NCBI GenBank assembly: GCA_038065235.1 | Contig: JBBTRK010000004.1 | Location: 1 to 48,297, forward strand | Reading direction: 5' to 3' | Source of the DNA: Patescibacteria group bacterium | Lineage (GTDB): Bacteria > Patescibacteriota > Patescibacteriia > PEXW01 | DNA: 48,297 bases | Shown: one piece after another, positions 13,614-35,385 of the stretch | How the letters are laid out: every line of letters starts with the position of its first letter | Position numbering within the stretch: the first letter of the stretch is position 1 | Position numbers and translations under genes: made by a program | Notes under the pieces: generated by a model | The model's database searches: none | Told to the model about the DNA's origin: nothing | What the model saw: the letters and a program-made list of their open reading frames with translations, nothing else

Positions 13614-13644
13614 AAACAAAAAACCGCACGGTTTCCCGAACGGT
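13614..13644 (-). terminator. Intrinsic terminator closing the 17.06-13.6 kb unit
   Basis: Minus strand ACCGTTCGG-GAAA-CCGTGCGGT followed by TTTTTGTTT. Confidence 0.7.
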
Positions 13645-13647
13645 CAT

Positions 13648-13788
13648 GTCTCTCTCCTCTCCCCTAGCCCACCGATACGTGCGACTGATACCCGGGTTTA
13701 CGTCCTTCCAGCAGGGAGAGAGTCCTAGTTGGATTTTCTGCAAACCTGAGATCGTAGGAAGTATCCGGTGGGCGGGGGCAAAGGAGAC
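13648..13788 (-). ncRNA. Candidate rod-shaped structured RNA (unidentified)
   Basis: GTCTC..GCCCACCG.GATAC pairs with GTATCGGTGGGC..GAGAC; inner helix CAGGTTTGC/GTAAACC; TATACT lies 6 nt upstream and a terminator follows. Confidence 0.45.
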
Positions 13789-13823
13789 GCCTCGAGTATA
13801 AACCTGACGTTTTTTTCTGCATA

Positions 13824-13895
13824 CCCTCCTCTCCCGTAATCCCGCTCTACGGGACTCTGGGAGAAGGGCAAGCAGCGAGTTGAACACTGCTTGCC
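13824..13895 (-). repeat. Divergent copy of the inter-ORF double hairpin
   Basis: GGCAAGCAG..CTGCTTGCC abutting CTTCTCCC...GGGAGAG. Confidence 0.55.
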
Positions 13896-13909
13896 AATGT
13901 ATTGGTAGC

Positions 13910-14140
13910 TTATACCCAATCCGTATACATCCACACAATAAACTTCAAAAGCAGAAGTGCAATGCAGAAGAGAATGAGTCCTCCCAGCATTGTGGTTAGG
14001 TCAGCCATAGTCAGTACTTTTTTGTATACGCCAATTGTGTAACCAATGGCAAACACAATTGGACTAAGAATAGCAAATATGGCCTTACAGAAAACAGCAA
14101 AATCAATGAGAATACAGAGAACAAAAAATACCATTTTCAT
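13910..14140 (-). CDS. Small membrane protein (76 aa)
   Basis: Hydrophobic ORF preceded by SD-like GAGGTG. Confidence 0.65.
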   Translation of the reverse strand: MKMVFFVLCILIDFAVFCKAIFAILSPIVFAIGYTIGVYKKVLTMADLTTMLGGLILFCIALLLLKFIVWMYTDWV

Positions 14141-14185
14141 TTTACACCTCTTTGTTTTATTGTTTTTTTACTCTCGAAAAGATCA

Positions 14186-14617
14186 TTACAGGTAGTTGAA
14201 GGTGACGAGCGCCTTCAGCTGGGGCATGCAGGTTGGGCAGTGCCGCCGGCAACTCATACTGGTTCCTACCAATATAAGCCCGACAACGCAGACCGTAAAA
14301 TTGTTCAGCAGGATATCCCGCGGACTGCCTTGCGCCAAGTCAATTGCGGTGACGAGCACGAAAATTACAGCGAGAACTCCGCCGACGAGCAAGAAACTCG
14401 CCCGCCAGTACCCCGACCACTCAACCTTCGTTAGGTTGCTCAATTTACCGCAGACGACTATGCAAAGTCCGAGCGCAGCAAGGGGTACCAAACCGTTATG
14501 GGCAACGAAGAACAGCATCTGTACGTTCGGTATCGTACCAATGCAGACTAGCAGCAACGCAACGAAGAGCGTGGCAATGATGATGCAAATTTCAAATAGC
14601 GTCTTCGTAAAAGTCAT
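14186..14617 (-). CDS. 4-TM membrane protein with Cys-rich tail (CRRHCPTC)
   Basis: AAGGAGG-atac-ATG at 14617; the longer ORF-track start reads through the hairpin repeat. Confidence 0.7.
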   Translation of the reverse strand: MTFTKTLFEICIIIATLFVALLLVCIGTIPNVQMLFFVAHNGLVPLAALGLCIVVCGKLSNLTKVEWSGYWRASFLLVGGVLAVIFVLVTAIDLAQGSPRDILLNNFTVCVVGLILVGTSMSCRRHCPTCMPQLKALVTFNYL

Positions 14618-14646
14618 GTATCCTCCTTGATTCATGTGTTTTTCTA

Positions 14647-14721
14647 TTTCTCCCCCACCCGTCGAGGCGTACTCAACGTGTAAGGGAGAAAGGCGAACGG
14701 TAGTGGTATGTACTGTTCGCC
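14647..14721 (-). repeat. Inter-ORF double-hairpin repeat, copy 1
   Basis: Variable hairpin followed by TTTCTCCCTTAC-AC-GTTGAG-TACGC-CTCGAC-GG-GTGGGGGAGAAA. Confidence 0.9.
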
Positions 14722-14736
14722 TTTTTTTCAAAGATC

Positions 14737-15198
14737 CTATTCGGGAATAATGTTCCCGATAGCTAGGCTAACTAACGCTACTAGAGCGAAAAGACTGAAA
14801 ACAAAGAATCCCTCGTAATCACTAATAGTACGTAGGCCAATTGCCTGGCCCTCATTCATTGAAACCAATTGGTAACGATTATACCAAATGAAACCATTGA
14901 AGCTTGCCGAGTTCCACTGCTTCATGCCCTGGCCAGCTGGTATCAGAATTATACCAACTTCGGTGGAATCCTTCGTAAGGTACCAGGTTACTGTTTGCTC
15001 CCCGTCTGATACATCGAGATCAGGACTGACTAACAGACGCGTTGAGAAGTCCTTACGAATAGTTTCGGGGATACTCACTTTTGACAGTAGTGATTCAATC
15101 CTGCTCGCTTCAGCTGCGTCAATTGGTTTTGCGTTGACGTTGCCAATGCAGAGTATGATAACCAACACTAGCAATGTGACGATAATTGTGTTTTTCAT
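14737..15198 (-). CDS. Secreted, C-terminally anchored protein, paralog A (153 aa)
   Basis: Signal peptide, C-terminal TM and SD AAGGAGG; shares VSDG..TV.WY.TKD, PAGQGMKQW and YQLVSM.EG.AIGLR with 15320..15781. Confidence 0.85.
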   Translation of the reverse strand: MKNTIIVTLLVLVIILCIGNVNAKPIDAAEASRIESLLSKVSIPETIRKDFSTRLLVSPDLDVSDGEQTVTWYLTKDSTEVGIILIPAGQGMKQWNSASFNGFIWYNRYQLVSMNEGQAIGLRTISDYEGFFVFSLFALVALVSLAIGNIIPE

Positions 15199-15237
15199 TA
15201 TTCCCTCCTTGGGATTTTAAAGGTGTATTGGTTTTTA

Positions 15238-15306
15238 TTTCTCCCCCACCTGTCGAGGCGTGCTCAACGCGTAAGGGAGAAGGACGAGCTGCATATGCAA
15301 CTCGTC
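15238..15306 (-). repeat. Inter-ORF double-hairpin repeat, copy 2
   Basis: GACGAGTTGCAT/ATGCAGCTCGTC followed by TTCTCCCTTACGCGTTGAGCACGCCTCGACAGGTGGGGGAGAA. Confidence 0.9.
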
Positions 15307-15319
15307 ACTTTCCAAAGAA

Positions 15320-15781
15320 CTAATTTTCAAACACGTATCCGATTAATCCAATGATCAATACAGTAACAAACAAAATTACAATCAATAACAAGTACAAATC
15401 AAATCCATCAAAATCCCGAACTATCCTAAGGCCAATTGCCCGGCCTTCACCCATCGAAACTAGTTGGTAGTTACAATAGAATATCGAACCATCAAGTTTC
15501 GTTGGCAGTGTCCACTGCTTCATTCCCTGGCCTGCTGGCATTGGAATAACCCCAAATCTGACGGTGTCTTTGGTGATATACCACATTACGGTCATGTCCC
15601 CGTCCGACACCGCAATATCTGGGTGGCTCGCTAACTCCCGCACGAATTCCTGACGAATATCTACAGGAATATCCACCTTCTGCAGCAACGAATCAATTCG
15701 ATCTTGCTCGAGTTGTGAAGCGTTTGCACTCGCTACACCAACTGCGAGTACAAAAATAACGGTACGAAGAATACTGTTCAT
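15320..15781 (-). CDS. Secreted, C-terminally anchored protein, paralog B (153 aa)
   Basis: Signal peptide, C-terminal TM and SD AGGAGG; clear paralog of 14737..15198. Confidence 0.85.
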   Translation of the reverse strand: MNSILRTVIFVLAVGVASANASQLEQDRIDSLLQKVDIPVDIRQEFVRELASHPDIAVSDGDMTVMWYITKDTVRFGVIPMPAGQGMKQWTLPTKLDGSIFYCNYQLVSMGEGRAIGLRIVRDFDGFDLYLLLIVILFVTVLIIGLIGYVFEN

Positions 15782-15816
15782 ATTTCCTCCTAGGAATCTG
15801 GTTTTTTTAGTTTTAG

Positions 15817-15896
15817 TTTCTCCCCCACCCGTCGAAGTACTTCAACGCGTAAGGGAGAAAAGGAAGGGCAGTAAGGAGCAACTCAACCGCCCTTCT
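15817..15896 (-). repeat. Inter-ORF double-hairpin repeat, copy 3
   Basis: GAAGGGCGG..CTGCCCTTC followed by TTTCTCCCTTACGCGTTGAAGTACTTCGACGGGTGGGGGAGAAA. Confidence 0.9.
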
Positions 15897-15901
15897 CCAA
15901 G

Positions 15902-15995
15902 TGTCATTGCGAGGAAGTGCCTATGGGCACTGACGAAGCAATCCCGTTGAAAAGCGAGATTGCCGCGCCCTCGTGCACTCGGGCTCGCAATGACA
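15902..15995. repeat. REP/MITE-like palindrome of the GTCATTGCGAG...CTCGCAATGAC type
   Basis: Terminal inverted repeats tgtcattgcgag/ctcgcaatgaca; a second copy lies at 35386. Confidence 0.85.
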
Positions 15996-16197
15996 GCGAT
16001 GTTTGTTGGCTGGAAGGGCCTCGCAGCCCTGTATACCTTTTGGGTATCGAGCATCCCTGCTCCGGGCTCTCATCCGCCGGCTATTCCGGACCAGCCAAAT
16101 TTTTTGGTTTCTCATCTCGAACGGCCTTTACTGAAAGACCAACCGAGATAAGTGGGGAATGAATTGCTTCGATTCCCCGAATGTACGTATTACAATC

Positions 16198-16380
16198 CTA
16201 CAGGGCAGCAATGGCAAAGATCAGTATGATCACGCCACAGATACCCGAGGTTATTATTGTTGTGAGGCCCGCATGAACCAAAGTCTGGTTCTGCGCCATT
16301 TTCCCGAATGCCGTTACCACTATGCCAGCGATGACGAACATTACGGCAATACCAATACCAAGAACAAGTATTGAAAGCAT
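16198..16380 (-). CDS. Small 2-TM protein (60 aa)
   Basis: TAAGGAG-aaaaa-ATG; two hydrophobic helices. Confidence 0.7.
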   Translation of the reverse strand: MLSILVLGIGIAVMFVIAGIVVTAFGKMAQNQTLVHAGLTTIITSGICGVIILIFAIAAL

Positions 16381-16400
16381 TTTTTCTCCTTACCAAAATG

Positions 16401-17060
16401 TTTCTTTCTATCAATCTGGAGGTGAGGTAGCCCTGAACCACTCATCCCGCGCATGCGGGATTCGGGTACAGGGCGGGGACGTTTTGGACCGAAGCCCACG
16501 CCCGAGTGATGGTTAAGTGTCTTTGGCAAGCTAGGCCTGCCGCGATACCGCACCATCGAGAAAGTCGCCTCCAAGTTGATAAAAAGAAAGTATTGTTTCT
16601 TCCCTCACTCGGTCTGCAAGACCCCGAGCATGCCACCGCCGTTGGCGGGGTCCCGCAGTAGGCGGTGATCGAGGGGCAGATCGGTTAAGGGAAAAATGAG
16701 TTGTCAATATACATGAGCCTTTGCGTGTAACGATCTGGAGGTGAGACGTAGCCTGCTTTGGACCGAAGCCCGCAGACCAACGAGGGTTGAGTGTCTTTGG
16801 CGAGTAACCCTGTACCAGTCGCTTGCGCTTCCGGTGCAGGGCGAGACCCGCCGCGATACCGCTCCCTCACATCTCGCTTGCTCATCCTTGCGGATGACCA
16901 ACCCCCTCCATATCGTTAGGCACAATCTCTCGACTACGCTCGAGATCTAACGAAAATCGCACTCCTGTGAGAGAGCACAACGATTAAATATGAGGTCCTT
17001 TTGGCCGCTCTCTCTTTCGGCAAAGGGACTGCTTGGGGAATGTTTAGATTTTCAACGTAA
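16401..17060 (-). ncRNA. Long structured leader/ncRNA containing two copies of an unrecognised motif
   Basis: Starts just after the promoter and has no credible ORF. It contains duplicated blocks with compensatory changes, cUUCGg loops, and G-U pairs that favour the minus strand. Confidence 0.65.
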
Positions 17061-17066
17061 CTGAGG

Positions 17067-17095
17067 AGTATACACGCGGGAGTATATCCTGTCAA
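17067..17095 (-). promoter_or_regulatory. sigma70 promoter
   Basis: TTGACA-17 bp-TATACT on the minus strand; +1 near 17060. Confidence 0.85.
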
Positions 17096-17137: not shown

Positions 17138-17167
17138 GGAAAAAGTGATACGTAATCCCCTGAATTT

Positions 17168-17211
17168 CCTCCTCTCCCATTGGGAGAGGGTCCGCGAAGC
17201 GGGGGTGAGGG
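17168..17211. repeat. REP-like hairpin flanking the DUF559 gene
   Basis: cctctcccattgggagagg...gggggtgaggg. Confidence 0.75.
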
Positions 17212-17213
17212 AA

Positions 17214-17558
17214 CTAATCTCGTATCTCGAGGTGAATCTTCTCTAAAACTATTTCTGGCTGCTTTTCAAAATCGTTGTTCCAAACTCGGATTACTTTGTA
17301 CCCTTGAGATCGTAAATATGCATCTCGTACCTGGTCACTTTCTTGATTAACCTGATCGTCATGTTGCCCACCATCTAGTTCAATGACGATGTGTTTTTCA
17401 CGGCAACAAAAGTCTGCCACATATTCACCTATAACAAATTGACGATGAAACTTCAAACCAAAAAATCTACGAGCACGCAATCTCGCCCACATCTTTACTT
17501 CGAATGGGTTTCGCTCCTTCCGCAATTTTCGAGCAATGGGCGTTAAACTATTTTGCAT
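17214..17558 (-). CDS. DUF559 / Vsr-like endonuclease
   Basis: ARKLRK...E.KMWARLR...KFHRQ..IGEYVADF...VIELDGGQH...RDAYLRSQGYKVIRVWN. Confidence 0.92.
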   Translation of the reverse strand: MQNSLTPIARKLRKERNPFEVKMWARLRARRFFGLKFHRQFVIGEYVADFCCREKHIVIELDGGQHDDQVNQESDQVRDAYLRSQGYKVIRVWNNDFEKQPEIVLEKIHLEIRD

Positions 17559-17567
17559 ACTTGGTCA

Positions 17568-17641
17568 ACCTCACCTGCCCTTGCCCTCGCACCTTCATGG
17601 TGCGGGGCTGCGGGCATCCTCTCCTAATAGGAGAGGAGGAT
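17568..17641. repeat. REP-like hairpin flanking DUF559, with a nested CCCCGCACC-type hairpin
   Basis: cctcacc...cctctcctaataggagagg, containing gcaccttcatggtgcgggg. Confidence 0.7.
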
Positions 17642-26083: not shown

Positions 26084-26149
26084 GTATGTTATGCCAAACG
26101 CCGTTACGTCCTTAGGTATTGGCAGACTCCTTATTGATTTCCAGAATTC

Positions 26150-26444
26150 TGGTGGGCGGAGAAGGGATCGAACCTTCGAAGGCGCAAGGCCAGCAGATTT
26201 TCCGGCAGAGCCGGATCCGCCCTCTGGCGGAACAGTCCAGCTCATGGAACTCTAGAAGACTGGTGGGCGGAGAAGGGATCGAACCTTCGAAGGCGCAAGG
26301 CCAGCAGATTTACAGTCTGCCCCGTTTGACCACTTCGGTATCCGCCCACCAGTCTTCTAGAAATGAAGTTGCCCCGTTTGTCCGGGGCGCTTCCGATGGG
26401 TCGCGCCCGTTCCGCAAGTGCGGAACCCACTTCGGTATCCGCCC
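26150..26444 (-). pseudogene. Outer tRNA-Tyr copy interrupted by three insertions
   Basis: Pieces 26425-26444, 26370-26380, 26232-26237 and 26150-26200 concatenate to the inner tRNA-Tyr sequence plus 1 nt in the D-loop. Confidence 0.8.
26261..26347 (-). tRNA. tRNA-Tyr (GTA)
   Basis: GGGCGGA acceptor stem, anticodon arm GCAGA-CTGTAAA-TCTGC, long variable arm, GGTTCGATCC, encoded CCA. Confidence 0.97.
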
Positions 26445-28255: not shown

Positions 28256-28584
28256 TCAAACCCTCCTCGCAAACGGCTCAAGGGCAACTATATGTGCTTG
28301 CGATCCGTACTGGAAAGCACGCGTTTTCCGTAAAGCGTGTCCACTAAGCTAATAAGTTTCTTGTCCTCTTTTCTGGTGAGCACAACCAATTCGCCTCGTA
28401 AATTATCAAGCTTATCGTCTAAATAATCTTTGGTTACCAGATATGACATCTGGGTCCGCACTGCTTTCATATCAATCTCAACCACGCTTAAACGTTTATC
28501 CACATGCTCCGAAAGCGCGTAAACAGCTTCCAAAACATCATCAATGTTTGTTGCTTTTGATGACTTTTTAATAATTTTAGACAT
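28256..28584 (-). pseudogene. Coiled-coil protein paralog with a 2-nt frameshift near the C-terminus (ORF stops at 28288)
   Basis: Shares VTKDYLDDK..LRGELVVLTR.ED.KL with its neighbour; the out-of-frame tail VALEPFARRV* matches the neighbour's LGMEPFARRV*. Confidence 0.7.
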
Positions 28585-28598
28585 AAAATATAGGTTTA

Positions 28599-29003
28599 TT
28601 ACACCCTCCTCGCAAACGGCTCCATGCCTAGAACTGTCTTTCGGCCGGAAGCCGAAAGTGATTCTTCGCTATACAGTTCTTCCACAAGCGAAGCGAGCTT
28701 TGCGTCTTCCCGACGGGTCAAAACCACCAATTCCCCTCGTAAACTGCCAATTTTATCGTCTAGGTAGTCTTTTGTGACCATGCTGCTCTCAATATGGGCA
28801 AATCGTTTATAGACCTGGTCAAATCTCTCGTCCATATGGGTAGCTAAGTCATCCACATGGGTCGCAAGATCGTTTACATGGGTAGACAGAACATTCACAT
28901 TGCTAGAAAGTTCGTTCATTCGGGTAGTCAAAATGCCTACATTGCCGGCCAGTGTCTTAACTTCACTCATAACCTCAGAATTCGTAACTTCTTTTGTAGT
29001 CAT
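28599..29003 (-). CDS. Coiled-coil hypothetical protein with heptad repeats
   Basis: LSTHVND-LATHVDD-LATHMDE heptads; paralog of the adjacent gene. Confidence 0.8.
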   Translation of the reverse strand: MTTKEVTNSEVMSEVKTLAGNVGILTTRMNELSSNVNVLSTHVNDLATHVDDLATHMDERFDQVYKRFAHIESSMVTKDYLDDKIGSLRGELVVLTRREDAKLASLVEELYSEESLSASGRKTVLGMEPFARRV

Positions 29004-29246: not shown

Positions 29247-29424
29247 AGTTAGCTTTCACTAGAGACATCCTCCACATGGGCAATTGCATTTCTGCAAGTA
29301 CAGTGCAAGGGAAATATCCATCAAATTTGGCTAATATTAGCCATTTTTTAATTTCAAAAATCAATCGCCATTACCAGGCACCCTCACCATTTTGCATTTT
29401 TTTACTTTCTTAACCGTCAATCAT

Positions 29425-32400
29425 ATGACGAATTTCTCTGTTTCCTGGAAGTCGGCCGGCAAGGTCAATTTCCTCAAAGCTAAGGTCATCAAGCGCCGCG
29501 CTTGGAAAACACTCAATGTGATTTCCACATTGGCTATAGTACTGAATACGGGGTTGATCGGCTCGTTTCTAACTCCAAATGTAGCAGGCGCTACTGGTAC
29601 TGGTGCGGTATGCCCAGCGGGAAACGTAAAACTAAATATTGATAGTGGATACGAATATAACGATGGCTCAGGGACAATTAATGGTAACGGTACAACCGTT
29701 ACTTGGGCTCCAGCTGCAGGTTTTGTAGTTACAAGTGTTTGCGTAAAAATTGGTGGTCATGATGGTGGCACTCTTATATATCCGACAGTTGGTAACGGAA
29801 CATACACCACAACTTCAAACAATATTAGCCATGCTGTTCTCTACACTGACCAACTAAATCCGGATCTGAAAATCAAGAAGTACGCGTGGGATACACAGTC
29901 TTCGAGTTGGAAAAACTGGGATCCCTCAGATGACTATGCATGGGCCAATCCGGGAGACACCGTAAACTTCATGGTAAAAGTCTGGAATGTTGGCTCAGAA
30001 ACTGGGGTAACAAACATTTCTGACTCACTTGATAGCGGTACAAACGGCATCTGGCAATCCCAACCAACCCCTGATACTAACAACGTCACCCTCATCGGCG
30101 GAGCCGCAAGCGAACCGGCTTTTACAGCAGGCGGCAACACCGACGGGACAACTAATTTCTATGTCTACACGTACACAGGAACACTAAAATCTTGGTACGC
30201 GAATGATGCTGAATACTATAGCATAAACAAAGCACAACTTTCACAAAATAACCAATACTCAAAAGCGAAGGTTAAGGTTGCGTACCAATGTGATCTCGTC
30301 GTCACGAAAACTGGCACCCCAAGTGTGACGCCTGGTGGCACTATTACCTACACACTCCATTACGAGAATAAGGGCACAGCAAACTGCACGGGCGGCGGGG
30401 TCTTAGTGAAAGACACCATTCCAGCAGCAACTACTTTTGTCAGCGCCTCACCAAGTGTTACGCCGGTAAGTAATGTCCTAACCTGGAACCTCGGCACCAT
30501 CCCGCCGCTAGTTTCTGGTGACGTAAAAGCATCAGGAGACTTAACCTTCACCGTAACAGCCAATGACAAGCCTGAAGTACGCTGCGATGACTGGACAATA
30601 GAGAACCAAGCAAAATACTGGGCCAGTGAATTTGGCAGCAACAACTGGAAATTCACCGACAGTAACCCTGACCTGCAAGGTACTCAACCATTCATAACAA
30701 GTGTTACAGCGCCCTGCTCAACCACGCTCACAATCATCAAAAACGTCATCAACGACAATGGGGGCAACTCCCAGCCTAACGAATTCAACTTGTCTATCGG
30801 TGGCGCAGCGACACTGTCCGGCGTGCCAATGACTGTAGAGGCAAATACACCTTACGTCATTAGTGAATCATTAACGGTACCGGGGTATACCTTCGTTTCC
30901 ATCACGGGCGATGCCAAGTGTCCAACATACGTAGGCGGCAGCATCACTCTGGATGAAGGTGACGACATTACGTGCACTTTCACCAATGACGACATTGCGC
31001 CGAAACTCACTTTGGTGAAAACCATTACCAATGATAACGGCGGGAATGCACAACCGAATGACTTCAAACTTACCATCGGTGGCGCAGCCACCCTGTCCGG
31101 CGTACCGATGACGGTTATGGCAAATACGCCCTACGCCATTAACGAAACGTCGGTAGACGGGTATACCTTCGTCTCTATCACGGGCGATAAGCGGTGCCCG
31201 GCTAACTTAGGTGTCACCATTAGTCTGAACGAAGGTGATAACGTCACCTGCACCATCACCAACACCCGCGACACGGGCGACTTGATTGTCCACAAGAACG
31301 TGCTGAACCCAGATGGCAATGAGGTTACGGACACGCATGCGTTTACGGTCACGCTGAACGGCGGCGACCAGAAGACCATTGCCGAAGGCACGGATGCGAC
31401 GTACAGCAACCTGCCAACGGGCAGCTACTCGATGGTTGAAAATCACGACAACGATTACGACTTCTCTGGCTGGTACCCGACTGGTAGCACGGAATACTCT
31501 TGCAACAATCCCAAAGAAAAAACGCTGCCAATTTCGGTTGATGTCGCGGTAAGCCCAACCACGGAAATCACTCTGTGCAACAAACAGAAGAAGGCCAAAA
31601 TCACCATCTCCAAAGATGTGCGTGACTTCCAGGGTAAGGGCGTAAACGAAGTAGGAAACTTCTCAGTGACGAGCGATGCCGGAGACTTCACCATTGCCGA
31701 ATACGATCCAGAAGTACTCTCGGTAAATCCTGGGACGTACACATTCAAGGAATTAGCACATGGTAACTACACTATCCATTCCACGAACCCGAAAGAAATC
31801 ACGGTTGGGAGCAATGGTGAAGAAGCGTACACCTTTGAGAACTGGCAGAAGCCGTCGTACATCACCGGCCAGAAGTTTGAAGACCACAACGGCACCGGTA
31901 CGAAGAAAGACGCAGGGGATCAGGGTCTAGCGAACTGGGAGATCTGCATTGGCGCCCAGAACTGTACACTCACCGACGTCAACGGCAACTACTCTTTCGG
32001 CCCACTCGCATCGGGGACGTACACCGTGACAGAAACCCAGCAGACCGGGTGGACGCAAACGGCACCGAAAAGCACACACGTCGTTACTCTCGGGATCAAT
32101 CAGACGGTGGTCGACAAAGACTTCGGCAACTTCCAACTCGGGAAAATCTGGGGCTACAAGTACGATACGCTGGATAACCCCTTGGATGACTGGAAGATTT
32201 GTTTGAACGCGGATAATTGTGAATGGACCGATGGTAATGGATTTTACGAGTTCACTGACCTTGAGGCTGGCGACTACACCGTTTACGAAGACCTTACGAA
32301 CGTAACTGGTTGGTACGCAGTATGGCCCAATGTCCTTGGCATCCACGAAACGATCACAATAAATTCTGGGGACAAAATCCAAAAAGATTTCGTAAACTTC

Positions 32401-34659
32401 CAGGGCGTGAACATTTCTGGTAGCAAGTTCAACGACCTCAACGGTAACGGCGAATGGGACAGCGGCGAACCGGGCCTTCCCGACTGGACCATCCAGCTCC
32501 TCAAAGACGAGGATGGATTCGAAGTCGCGGATTCTGCCACCACGGATGTGAACGGTAACTACACCTTCGGCCCAATTGGCCCTGGCGACTACCGTGTACG
32601 CGAAGTGCAGCAATCACCGACTTGGACGCAAGCCACAAGCAACCCTGAAGATTTTACGACCGTAAGCGGACAGGATGTGAATGGCCTGGACTTCGGCAAC
32701 TACAAGTACGGCCGCATCTCTGGCTACAAGTACGACAATGATGAGGAACCCCTAGATGGTTGGCAAATTTGTTTGGTGAAAAACCAACCAGAGCTCAACA
32801 CTATCTCGCGCGTAAGCATCCAGGAACCGAACTGCAAGATCACTGGCACAGGCGAATGGCAAGACGGCTATTACGAGTTCACCGGTTTAACCACTGGCGA
32901 GTACTCCGTATCCGAAACGCAGCAGTATGGCTGGACACAAATAGCGCCAGAGGGCAACGTCTTCAACATTTCTGTCCAGTCGGGTACCGACTCGAAAAAT
33001 AACGACTTCTGGAACCGCAAAAATACTTTCAACGTGTCCATTGATAAAGTGGCCGCGGAAAGCGTGAATGCGGGTGAGAACCTAACGTACACGCTCAACT
33101 GGAGCGTCACGGGTAACACCCCCGTGGAGGTCAAGCTCTTCGATGTGCTGCCAGCAAACACTACGTTCGTCTCGGCCACAGGTAGCGGCACCCTCGACGT
33201 AAATACGGTTCGCTGGAATCTGGGTACAAAAACCCCAGCCGACAGTGGCTTCGTAACCCTCACCGTGAAGGTGAATAGCCCGTTGGATAAGGGCACGATA
33301 ATCGCCAACACCGGCAACATCTGCGGCTTGGGTGCAATCGCCGATGGTGAGCCGTTCTTCTCGAACGGGGAAGACCTGCGCCGCCAGAAGTGCGACGATG
33401 ATCCAGCTACAACAACTGTTAATGCAGAGCCATTGCTCGGCATCGCCAAAGTAGCAAACCCAACGACGGTTGGTGGCAACCAGAATGTTACCTATACCGT
33501 AACTTGGTCTGTTGCGGGCAACTCTAAGGCAACCAACGTCGTGGTCACGGACCCCATCCCGGCCAGCACAACCTACGTGTCTATGGGTTGCGGCACCACA
33601 ACCGGCACCTGCACCATGAGTACAACTGGCACACCTGTGACCTCCACAACCTGGAACCTCGGAATACGGCTCCCAGGTGAAGGCGGTACGCTTACCCTCG
33701 TGGTGAAGACGGCTATTTCCGTGCCGAACGGCTCCGTGATTCCGAACAAGGCGACGATTGCTGCGCAAGACATTGACCCAGTCTTCGCGGCAGCAGACGT
33801 GAAAGCCGCAACGGCTCCACAGCTGCAGATTACGAAGACGGCAAATGCGACCATCGTGAACCCGGGTGACCCGATTAGCTACACGGTGAAGGTGAAGAAC
33901 ATTGGTACTGACACGGCAGTGAATGCGGTCATGACCGATACGCTCCCCGCAGGCTTCACCTTTGTGAGTACCAGCCCGGTGGCAACGAGCATCGTGGGTC
34001 AAACTGGCACCTGGAATCTTGGCGATATGGCTGTGGGTGCAGAGAAAACTATAACTTACACCGTTAACGTCACTCCAGGCACCACTGCTGGTACGTACGA
34101 CAACATTGCCAAAGCCAAGGCAAATAATGCGCCAGAAGTGAGCACAAAGGTCCCAGTGCAAACCCGCGTACCGCAAGTTCTGGGTGAAACCACGAACCCA
34201 GTGCTGCAGCTCCGCAAGAGCGTGAGCAAGGCAACAGTGGCGCCAGGCGATACTGTCACGTACACCGTGGAGATTAAGAACACGGGCACGGGCAGTGCTA
34301 TCAACGTCATTCTGACTGACCTCCTCCCCGTGGGCTTTGCCTTCAAAGGCACAGACTTGACGACCAAGGAATGGAAGCTCGGTGACATCGGTGTCGGCGA
34401 GACCAAAACCGTGAGCTACAAGGTGACCGTGGGCAAGAGCGTCCCGAACGGTTCCTACGAAAACCTCGCAATTGCCCAAGCCGACAACCATGGCAAGGTA
34501 ACCACGAGCGTACCAGTACAAGTGAAGCGCGGTCGCGTACTAGCTGAAGTCGTTGATACTGGTGCTGGTCCAGTAGACCTCGCGGTTGCAGGGGTAGGCC
34601 TTGGTCTCATCGTCCTGGGCTTCGTCCTCACCCGCAAGCGCGGAGAGGAACTCGCCTAA
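29425..34659 (+). CDS. Large surface adhesin-like protein (DUF11 and SdrD-B/CnaB-type Ig repeats), probable sortase substrate
   Basis: N-terminal TM; repeated K.....V.PG..ITYT and G.KF.D.NG.G..D.GE.GL..W.I units; C-terminal VVDTG + TM + RKR; likely start ATG 29425. Confidence 0.9.
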   Translation: MTNFSVSWKSAGKVNFLKAKVIKRRAWKTLNVISTLAIVLNTGLIGSFLTPNVAGATGTGAVCPAGNVKLNIDSGYEYNDGSGTINGNGTTVTWAPAAGFVVTSVCVKIGGHDGGTLIYPTVGNGTYTTTSNNISHAVLYTDQLNPDLKIKKYAWDTQSSSWKNWDPSDDYAWANPGDTVNFMVKVWNVGSETGVTNISDSLDSGTNGIWQSQPTPDTNNVTLIGGAASEPAFTAGGNTDGTTNFYVYTYTGTLKSWYANDAEYYSINKAQLSQNNQYSKAKVKVAYQCDLVVTKTGTPSVTPGGTITYTLHYENKGTANCTGGGVLVKDTIPAATTFVSASPSVTPVSNVLTWNLGTIPPLVSGDVKASGDLTFTVTANDKPEVRCDDWTIENQAKYWASEFGSNNWKFTDSNPDLQGTQPFITSVTAPCSTTLTIIKNVINDNGGNSQPNEFNLSIGGAATLSGVPMTVEANTPYVISESLTVPGYTFVSITGDAKCPTYVGGSITLDEGDDITCTFTNDDIAPKLTLVKTITNDNGGNAQPNDFKLTIGGAATLSGVPMTVMANTPYAINETSVDGYTFVSITGDKRCPANLGVTISLNEGDNVTCTITNTRDTGDLIVHKNVLNPDGNEVTDTHAFTVTLNGGDQKTIAEGTDATYSNLPTGSYSMVENHDNDYDFSGWYPTGSTEYSCNNPKEKTLPISVDVAVSPTTEITLCNKQKKAKITISKDVRDFQGKGVNEVGNFSVTSDAGDFTIAEYDPEVLSVNPGTYTFKELAHGNYTIHSTNPKEITVGSNGEEAYTFENWQKPSYITGQKFEDHNGTGTKKDAGDQGLANWEICIGAQNCTLTDVNGNYSFGPLASGTYTVTETQQTGWTQTAPKSTHVVTLGINQTVVDKDFGNFQLGKIWGYKYDTLDNPLDDWKICLNADNCEWTDGNGFYEFTDLEAGDYTVYEDLTNVTGWYAVWPNVLGIHETITINSGDKIQKDFVNFQGVNISGSKFNDLNGNGEWDSGEPGLPDWTIQLLKDEDGFEVADSATTDVNGNYTFGPIGPGDYRVREVQQSPTWTQATSNPEDFTTVSGQDVNGLDFGNYKYGRISGYKYDNDEEPLDGWQICLVKNQPELNTISRVSIQEPNCKITGTGEWQDGYYEFTGLTTGEYSVSETQQYGWTQIAPEGNVFNISVQSGTDSKNNDFWNRKNTFNVSIDKVAAESVNAGENLTYTLNWSVTGNTPVEVKLFDVLPANTTFVSATGSGTLDVNTVRWNLGTKTPADSGFVTLTVKVNSPLDKGTIIANTGNICGLGAIADGEPFFSNGEDLRRQKCDDDPATTTVNAEPLLGIAKVANPTTVGGNQNVTYTVTWSVAGNSKATNVVVTDPIPASTTYVSMGCGTTTGTCTMSTTGTPVTSTTWNLGIRLPGEGGTLTLVVKTAISVPNGSVIPNKATIAAQDIDPVFAAADVKAATAPQLQITKTANATIVNPGDPISYTVKVKNIGTDTAVNAVMTDTLPAGFTFVSTSPVATSIVGQTGTWNLGDMAVGAEKTITYTVNVTPGTTAGTYDNIAKAKANNAPEVSTKVPVQTRVPQVLGETTNPVLQLRKSVSKATVAPGDTVTYTVEIKNTGTGSAINVILTDLLPVGFAFKGTDLTTKEWKLGDIGVGETKTVSYKVTVGKSVPNGSYENLAIAQADNHGKVTTSVPVQVKRGRVLAEVVDTGAGPVDLAVAGVGLGLIVLGFVLTRKRGEELA

Positions 34660-34668
34660 CTGCATACA

Positions 34669-35385
34669 ATGGTTGACCTTCATCCAGGTCATACCAAAGA
34701 AAGGAAGCTCACCCGTCGGGTGGGCTTCCTTCTCATTGGCATTGGCCTCGTCGTGCTTTCATACCCGCTCTGGCCAATTATCCGGTATCAGGTTGCGGGG
34801 CCAGTGAGCACACCGGAGGAGCCAGTGTTCCCGTACGAGAGTAACCTCATTACCGCCGATGGCACAATTGCCGTTCCGACGACGAATGGGGAAGGAATTC
34901 AAATCCTTACCAACGTACGGCAAGCACTCAACGTCCCGTTACCGACGACCAAACGCGTAAAGGCAAGAGTTGTAAATCGAGTGCGCCCACCAGACAACCG
35001 CTTGGTCATCCCGAAAATTGGCGTTAACTTACCAATCGTCGAAGGCCAAGAAAGCGAAGCAGCGCTTTGGAAAGGTGCCTGGCGCATTGCCGACTCTTCC
35101 ACACCCAAAATTGGTGGCAATACCGTACTCTCTGCTCACCGCTTTCGCTACCGACCACCGTCGAACCTCACGCTGTACCTCTTGGATAAGCTGCAACCAG
35201 GTGACATCATGATCATCTACTGGCAAGGCAAGGAGTATGACTACCGGGTGACGGAAAGGAAAATTGTGCCGCGGGATAACACGGACATTGCCGAGCCGAC
35301 ACTAACTGACCAGCTCACCGTATTCACTTGCCATCCGCTCTTCTCGACGAAGGAACGATTGGTTGTAATCGGGGTGCTACTTTAA
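34669..35385 (+). CDS. Sortase
   Basis: N-terminal TM, RLVIPKIG, GNTVLSAHR (His), TVFTCHP (Cys), ERLVV (Arg). Confidence 0.93.
   Translation: MVDLHPGHTKERKLTRRVGFLLIGIGLVVLSYPLWPIIRYQVAGPVSTPEEPVFPYESNLITADGTIAVPTTNGEGIQILTNVRQALNVPLPTTKRVKARVVNRVRPPDNRLVIPKIGVNLPIVEGQESEAALWKGAWRIADSSTPKIGGNTVLSAHRFRYRPPSNLTLYLLDKLQPGDIMIIYWQGKEYDYRVTERKIVPRDNTDIAEPTLTDQLTVFTCHPLFSTKERLVVIGVLL

Follow-up and report, generated by a model that had tools for sequence, protein, structure and literature searches.

The window analysed here is the whole of a 48,297-nucleotide stretch (positions 1 to 48,297 of contig JBBTRK010000004.1, assembly GCA_038065235.1) from a Patescibacteria group bacterium. On its minus strand it carries an array of small genes punctuated by pairs of RNA hairpins, with a DUF4012 gene and a DUF559 gene at one end and murJ at the other. 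The window is contig C4 of a genome (G000) of 895 kb in 21 contigs, which is 93% complete; other genomes, loci and cargo families are referred to by G, L and F numbers. Each unit of the array runs from a stop codon through a U-rich linker (sometimes with a boxA-like sequence), a variable hairpin 1, a gap of 0-2 nt, a hairpin 2 of ~42 nt and an A-rich linker to a Shine-Dalgarno (SD) sequence and an open reading frame (ORF), or to a tRNA-like RNA. The hairpin pair is a real, conserved and hitherto uncatalogued element, for which a function in mRNA is proposed below. The features of the locus, 5' to 3' on the minus strand, are as follows.

17067..17095, minus strand: sigma-70 consensus promoter heading the array (11/12 matches, 17-nt spacer)
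16400..17060, minus strand: structured leader, two tandem copies of an uncatalogued RNA domain (z = -8.9 for 16385-16900)
16597..16696, minus strand: hairpin-2-like stem with inserted hairpins and no hairpin 1, from the fold
16198..16380, minus strand: 60-aa hydrophobic ORF, no Pfam or PHROG match
16111..16178, minus strand: hairpin pair with a 1-nt gap, then an A-rich linker and the tRNA-like RNA
16006..16098, minus strand: tRNA-like five-arm RNA in the position of a cargo gene, with an acceptor-like stem and a T-arm-like hairpin
15907-15997: palindromic insert, repeated on other G000 contigs and in other organisms' contigs, which we take to be like a repetitive extragenic palindrome (REP)
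15817..15895, minus strand: hairpin pair (hairpin 1 ~15863-15895, hairpin 2 15817-15860)
15320..15781, minus strand: 153-aa orphan protein of family F2, with hydrophobic N- and C-terminal helices
15310..15320, minus strand: boxA-like sequence overlapping the stop codon (9/11 matches to the consensus in the available text of PMC13753749)
15238..15309, minus strand: hairpin pair
14737..15198, minus strand: 153-aa orphan protein, 45% identical to the product of 15320..15781
14726..14736, minus strand: boxA-like sequence directly after the stop codon (11/11 against the B. subtilis core)
14647..14724, minus strand: hairpin pair with a 0-nt gap
14186..14617, minus strand: 143-aa orphan membrane protein of family F3, with 25-37% identical homologues in four related arrays
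13910..14140, minus strand: 76-aa hydrophobic ORF with an SD sequence and no hairpin pair ahead of it
13828..13895, minus strand: divergent last hairpin pair at the array end; the same type closes the G001 and G004 arrays
13635..13800, minus strand: -10 box (13795-13800) and long-hairpin RNA, conserved in the family and marking the array end

All five hairpin pairs of the window are on the minus strand. A first-pass annotation had described three close copies and one divergent copy of a double-hairpin spacer. The close copies have the positions and arms claimed for them (14648-14690, 15239-15281 and 15818-15859), and the minus-strand RNA folds of the three units give z = -6.7, -6.0 and -5.2, with 0 of 200 shuffles equally stable; folded as the plus strand the same units give z = -4.8, -3.4 and -2.4. 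The divergent copy is equally real (13828-13895, minus strand, z = -6.8), and downstream of it are the separate -10 box and the conserved long-hairpin RNA. The fifth pair, at 16111-16178, had not been recorded. A related base stem was said to close the domain, and there is indeed a stem at 16597-16696 (z = -5.7), which turns out to be hairpin-2-like and without hairpin 1. The order of pair, A-rich linker, SD sequence and ORF is that of the unit, with the exception of the pair at 16111-16178, which precedes the tRNA-like RNA instead of an ORF, and of the divergent copy, which precedes the -10 box and the long-hairpin RNA.

None of the five ORFs of the array has a Pfam or PHROG match, and their GC content is 0.37-0.52 against 0.54-0.57 in the flanking genes. 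With Rfam 15, nothing in the window array (units, leader, tRNA-like RNA) matched over the gathering threshold or by E-value, and the only Rfam matches in 13 related loci were two to tmRNA. No promoter-like site was found in the window's five units; the region holds 6 against 4.4 expected.

Relatives were sought by a DNA search of 60 genomes, which gave matches in all 11 members of the same family, and 16 further loci were reached with the long-hairpin RNA as an anchor, of which 8 were scanned and 8 set aside as apparent duplicates. Two detectors gave 69 and 8 units, from which three were removed (two mis-parsed, one duplicate), leaving 74 units on 15 pieces from 14 sources. Gap (no more than 2 nt), junction (rich in pyrimidines) and tail (A-rich) are all detector requirements, which makes these three traits partly built in, and some units that can be recognised by eye are overlooked. 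The filters do not account for the excess of 0-nt gaps, for the narrow range of hairpin 2 lengths (24-85 nt was allowed in the main detector), for the excess of G-U pairs or for the density. A covariance model was then made from 51 aligned units, its structure being hairpin 2 only, with hairpin 1 left out. Twenty-four regions matched by the model were fetched; a rescan of the 22 not already used, and of 1 extra region, brought 28 further pairs that agree with the first set in gap and length, several regions yielding none. The original and new units together number 102.

The two hairpins abut: the gap is 0 nt in 55 of the 74 units, 1 nt in 17 and 2 nt in 2, and it is again 0 in 25 of the 28 units at new loci, although the structure of the model lacked hairpin 1. 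Hairpin 2 is 40-44 nt long in 54/74 units, with a median of 17 bp, and hairpin 1 varies from 6 to 20 bp. Every one of the 102 units has a hairpin 2 of at least 14 pairs and at least 22 bp in both hairpins together, their stacking being predicted. A stop codon lies within 45 nt upstream in 54/74 units and a start codon within 80 nt downstream in 58/74, with hairpin 1 a median of ~15 nt past the stop. There is no invariant column across the 51 unit sequences. Within one subfamily hairpin 2 hardly varies, even between two genera, and in a test for the proximal and distal box pairs of RNase III sites an adjacent U-A / U-G pair was invariant in 15/15 members of one subfamily, while other subfamilies differ. 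The conserved traits are geometric, namely the absence of a gap, the fixed length of hairpin 2 and a free sequence, which suggests that whatever reads the element recognises double-stranded RNA. In two window units the U-rich linker was seen to pair with the SD sequence downstream, but this was discarded as a general feature: cognate pairs gave -5.4 kcal/mol against -5.3 and -5.2 for mismatched and shuffled ones (81 units).

It had been proposed that G-U pairs favour the mRNA strand, and this is borne out by 222 G-U pairs against 36 A-C mismatches and by the better fold of the sense strand in 66/74 units. In 70,208 bases of arrays there are 53 sense units and 1 antisense. In the alignment of 51 units each of the 15 consensus pairs in hairpin 2 is altered on both sides, and 92.3% of cells are paired, compared with 64.9% after shuffling and 44-54% after sliding; the sequences are related and fold-selected, so that the significance is overstated, but in the slid controls pairing drops to about half.

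The copies were also found to keep to the locus. A two-arm search of the 895-kb genome returned the three close copies and one unrelated longer repeat on another contig, and the conserved 43-nt hairpin is confined to the array locus within that genome. The compact pair occurs 6 times outside the locus (1.79 Mb, both strands) against 53 times in the 70 kb of arrays. The repeats could in principle be functionless by-products of tandem duplication, as two of the window's ORFs are paralogous and hairpins 2 are slightly more alike within genomes than between them (0.46 against 0.40). With compensatory changes in homologues at every consensus pair, a fold that is retained in unrelated sequences of other families, and hairpins 2 at least 80% alike that precede homologous ORFs in just 2 of 32 cross-genome pairs and non-homologous genes in the other 30, this explanation is very improbable indeed; the units are not passive parts of one duplication.

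In G001, G004, G005, G006, G007, G008 and G009 the arrays end at the long-hairpin RNA and murJ. The relatives' arrays share the architecture and the site beside murJ and differ in having unrelated sequences and other cargo genes; in one array the architecture is repeated up to ~17 times. G010 and one G009 contig have array pieces without the anchor of long-hairpin RNA and murJ, and no array was seen in the stretches of G003 examined, where murJ was not found at the cut-off used. Records matching the locus motif are mostly from Patescibacteria, Candidatus Kerfeldbacteria (L059) among them, and two are labelled as other groups. The 51-unit model has matches in 34/101 genomes at E 0.05, including 11/11 family members, and in 8/150 other genomes across the phylum at E 0.001. 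It also located a second array in each of G008 and G010, together with clusters in G039, G073, G045 and G012, and in G039 and G050, which belong to other families, units lie upstream of murJ. The murJ locus is not a class-wide site: in other-family genomes picked by murJ alone a pair was found in 0/19 within 7 kb upstream, with three weak model matches (one more region, 151 bases long, was excluded). The element is family-typical and patchy beyond.

The second G008 array (L094, C2, ~96000-110500) has at least 11 pairs. That of G039 (L095, C1, ~339000-345000) includes one cargo gene whose product has, by eye, a type IV pilin-like N terminus. Leaders like that of the window head arrays in G039 and G094, and in G058 a promoter and a purine run lie upstream of murJ with no pairs detected.

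A rough caller gave 112 cargo ORFs, a few of them false calls over structured RNA or genes past the array ends; 71 are singletons and the remainder form 13 families. A hydrophobic segment is present in 79/112. Among 96 cargo ORFs scanned with Pfam one matched, as a MoxR-type ATPase, and the cargo of L094 includes proteins with STAS, FHA, signal peptidase S26 and M50 peptidase domains as well as one that is weakly matched as pilin-like. The F2 protein had no fold match in the PDB at E 0.001 or better and four strong matches among 1.84 billion representatives. In the comparison among relatives that had been recommended, cargo differs by genome, and shared cargo is mostly in the same order, with F8 and F9 appearing to change place.

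The first-pass annotation also suggested single-stranded DNA recombination sites; on this reading an unknown or host recombinase would insert and excise promoterless cassettes as in an integron. Arrays of attC sites, in integrons or in clusters lacking the integrase (CALIN), have one upstream promoter and promoterless small orphan genes bounded by a folded repeat, and vary at a fixed locus. The present arrays have promoterless ORFs behind one promoter, minimal untranslated regions and variation between relatives, 71 of the 112 cargo ORFs being singletons, and a strand bias would also be compatible with folded single-stranded DNA. One subfamily has the nearly invariant hairpin 2 noted above, and L059 and L061, 100% identical over 2.5 kb upstream, carry different genes from 16 nt after the same hairpin 2. 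The second junction of L061 is inside an ORF, however, and L061 is 2,348 bases shorter, so that a deletion or misassembly is possible. The attC consensus boxes are R'' RYYYAAC and R' GTTRRRY; neither occurs in any of the 74 units on either strand, there are two hairpins instead of one, and no integron integrase (IntI) exceeded the TIGR02249 cut-off in 5/5 genomes, which are incomplete. The attC identification therefore fails. G000 has a single tyrosine recombinase, on another contig, and four sequencing runs (contigs, depth <7) showed no joint that skips a cassette or closes a circle. In G006 the repeated stretch takes in a unit and the opening codons of the gene behind it, the pattern of an ordinary duplication, and one cargo family may sit behind unrelated pair types. 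Taken together, a recombination site is a distinctly improbable reading.

Other origins for the arrays were tried and rejected. A cassette of hairpin 2, ORF and hairpin 1 moving as one piece does not agree with cargo families that sit beside dissimilar hairpins. A phage origin was looked for in viral contigs, which yielded neither the hairpin pattern nor family F2, and 3/30 cargo proteins match PHROG families of unknown function. As for construction by reverse transcriptase (RT), the three RT genes of G000 are all on other contigs (C18:9867-11900, C11:7130-9950 and C9:5649-7944). These loci have the layout of diversity-generating retroelements; the two that were read have the template and variable repeats, and the third is alike by layout. 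At the C11 retroelement, a 9/9 boxA-like match comes immediately after the consensus promoter of the target gene.

A similar layout is described, in the available part of PMC2839356, for the promoter early stem-loop (PeSL) cassettes of the T4-type phages RB49 and phi1, where repeated intergenic stem-loops precede orphan genes in a hyperplastic region and are proposed to drive shuffling by recombination. The units here likewise place a stem-loop between a stop codon and the SD sequence of an orphan gene in a variable region. Each PeSL, as that text describes it, holds a sigma-70 promoter and a terminator-type stem, whereas the five window units hold no promoter (relatives were not scanned), have paired hairpins and lie on a bacterial chromosome. 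In layout the array resembles those of integrons and PeSL cassettes, yet it fails defining tests of both.

An RNA-level reading, including the RNase III-type processing suggested in the first-pass annotation, fits best, and the cleavage itself we infer. At about even confidence, we propose that the hairpin pair is a processing and stabilising signal in mRNA, whose stacked helix is cut by RNase III or guides RNase Y; the proposal builds on the observed architecture, strand, covariation, spacing from stop and start codons and turnover of the intervening genes. One long transcript would run from the promoter at 17095 to ~13810, and by stacking on each other the two hairpins would form a single nicked helix, 22 bp or longer. 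RNase III may cut this helix in lower hairpin 2 or at the junction, which is tentatively put forward as possible rather than probable; the alternative, that the structure guides RNase Y to the flanking linker, is less likely again. Each product would retain a stem on one side or on both, which would shield it from RNase J and 3' exonucleases; thanks to the A-rich linker the SD sequence would stay accessible, and the boxA-like sequences would load NusB-S10 as in rRNA operons. Gene turnover would take place in the linkers, where ordinary duplication, deletion and recombination would suffice and a dedicated recombinase would not be needed. Another earlier suggestion, a protein-binding tag, is no more than a possibility.

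G000 encodes two RNase III enzymes, RNase Y, RNase J and NusB. The shortest helix on which RNase III reacts is 11 bp, with ~22 bp for full contact, according to the available text of PMC1540722, and the helices predicted by stacking reach both lengths in 102/102 units. Hairpin 1 on its own reaches 11 bp in only 46/102, so that a junction cut with 11 bp on each side is unfit for most units and a cut in lower hairpin 2 fits better.

That limit on hairpin 1 is one of several points that weigh against our proposal. The sole RNA run consists of contigs with a depth of 0-4.6 over array and flanking genes alike and with no usable ends, and one RNA contig (14546-15116) spans the 14647 unit unbroken; the run is uninformative, and uncovered stretches in it prove nothing. 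RNase III is present in 60/61 genomes searched and its second copy is patchy, neither tracking the arrays. Several cargo genes have no pair ahead of them. A boxA-like sequence occurs in a minority of units, and 37/768 ordinary post-stop regions also reach 8/11. RNase III is said to cut coaxially stacked helices, going by the title of a 1999 report (Franch) cited in PMC1540722.

The two RNase III genes of G000 are at C15:11601-11879 and C20:25251-25523; the second lies ahead of a uvrB-like gene, and for most relatives the search gave no equivalent of this second match. A likely 16S processing stem, formed by C20:~35050-35075 and C6:~810-835, has a purine-rich and a pyrimidine-rich strand, with a boxA-like sequence ahead, and by eye shows the same strand asymmetry as the hairpin pairs.

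By analogy with known systems, the element likely works like a site of selective RNA processing and stabilisation (SRPS) or an RNase III intercistronic site. The RNase III sites of phage T7, to which the spacers had been compared, are single hairpins. T7 R1.1, as described in PMC1540722, resembles the units in that its helices are imperfect, have the length that RNase III requires and stand between the genes of a single transcript; here the needed length would come from two helices, and the box rules of the E. coli enzyme could not be mapped onto the units. In the accessible text of PMC10311766, the SRPS site IR4 of the cip-cel operon of Ruminiclostridium cellulolyticum offers a tested precedent: a small hairpin and, after it, a larger one whose base is rich in A-U lie between two cistrons and direct a cut upstream of the larger, tentatively attributed to RNase Y; there too structure counts over sequence, and the host has RNase Y and RNase J. 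The cip-cel stems are, from the same text, unrelated one-offs in a stable operon of known enzymes, whereas the arrays described here repeat one architecture up to ~17 times with a gap of 0-1 nt, and have a predicted cleavage and a cargo that turns over and includes RNA domains.

The boxA-like sequences allow another account. The motif was first noticed in the original sequences and scored with published cores, so that the 28-unit set is the fairer test: at least 8/11 matches occur upstream in 13/73 original units against 4.0 when shuffled, and in 7/28 new units against 1.6, with a downstream match in 5/28 of the new set. In G039 six places chosen by pattern have such a sequence after hairpin 2, not ahead of hairpin 1, and a G296 unit has one on both sides. 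It is possible that boxA and the pair reload or modify RNA polymerase for read-through of a long AT-richer operon, overriding hairpin 1 and the pyrimidine tract as a weak terminator; the presence of nusB in G000 is in keeping with this. Lambda nut can be likened to the array in the same way as rRNA boxA leaders and HK022 put. The likeness is in a consensus promoter, a boxA-like sequence beside hairpins and a two-stem RNA, and, as far as the available text of PMC13753749 and PMC9378689 goes, the rRNA complex also interferes with intrinsic termination and put acts on polymerase as a two-stem RNA. However, most units lack a good boxA match, which where present stands on either side; the cargo is mRNA; Rho was not found in the 93%-complete genome; put needs specific bases and a triplex, while the units have no put-like conserved bases; and the fixed length of hairpin 2 would be left unexplained. 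Antitermination as the main function is on balance unlikely.

Less probable again is a passive role for the pairs, in which they would stabilise 3' ends or terminate leakily, much as REP stems do, and so grade expression along the operon without a defined cut site. The position of hairpin 1 shortly past the stop codon, with pyrimidines to follow, would suit this, as would the 19/74 units with 5-6 U in the next 8 nt. The other 55 units have at most 4 U, the terminator scan called none of the window's units, and a passive barrier would need neither the 0-1 nt gap nor the fixed hairpin 2.

At the head of the array, a comparable promoter is found at the same place in G004, G005, G009, L055 and L059. 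The leader, which has no Rfam match, carries the boxA-like TTGACAAC, also found in the rRNA leader of G000, and by eye a purine loop complementary to a downstream pyrimidine run may form a pseudoknot. The DUF559 gene (17167-17640) has inverted hairpin repeats on both sides and is inserted upstream of the array promoter; it is absent there in G004 and G005.

The tRNA-like RNA is found after a hairpin pair in G004, G006, G008, G010 and L065 also, with a looser variant in G005. It has a conserved closing stem and T-arm-like hairpin, with no ARAGORN call and no Rfam match. It is not the tmRNA, whose gene is elsewhere in 5/5 genomes; a punctuation mark for RNase P or a new small RNA are possible roles. 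At the other end, the long-hairpin RNA (13635-13800), beside murJ, has its own -10 box, is 74-93% conserved across the family and has a 6S-like shape. It is probably a transcript separate from the array; 6S RNA itself was rejected, there being no 6S match in 5 genomes and no other Rfam match.

Elsewhere in the window, a partial duplicate of tRNA-Tyr, broken near the anticodon, lies beside the intact gene (26130-26213, 26261-26347). Two small ORFs at 28288-29003 share a 65-nt repeat (77% identity) and have weak coiled-coil matches only, and 29392-35385 encodes a 1755-aa DUF11/SdrD-type surface protein, followed by a sortase-domain gene.

A literature search, with supplements and most subscription journals outside its scope, returned no description of the hairpin-pair element. 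Orphan genes are numerous in Patescibacteria, and their expression and exchange are largely unknown; here there is a defined, searchable element, whose covariance model finds arrays in all 11 related family genomes and clusters in some other families. The processing proposal makes sharp predictions of gap, helix length and cut position that can be put to purified enzymes though the organism is uncultured, and a short, sequence-flexible spacer that cuts and protects may be of use in synthetic operons. It is also conceivable, if unlikely, that the arrays are an integrase-free platform for gene capture, an rRNA-style operon in which the pairs, besides turning every cargo into a separate stable RNA, would act as exchange points. 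If so, lineages would be swapping orphan proteins, membrane-bound and secreted, and small RNAs from a common pool, which would give these ultra-small cells a variable surface.

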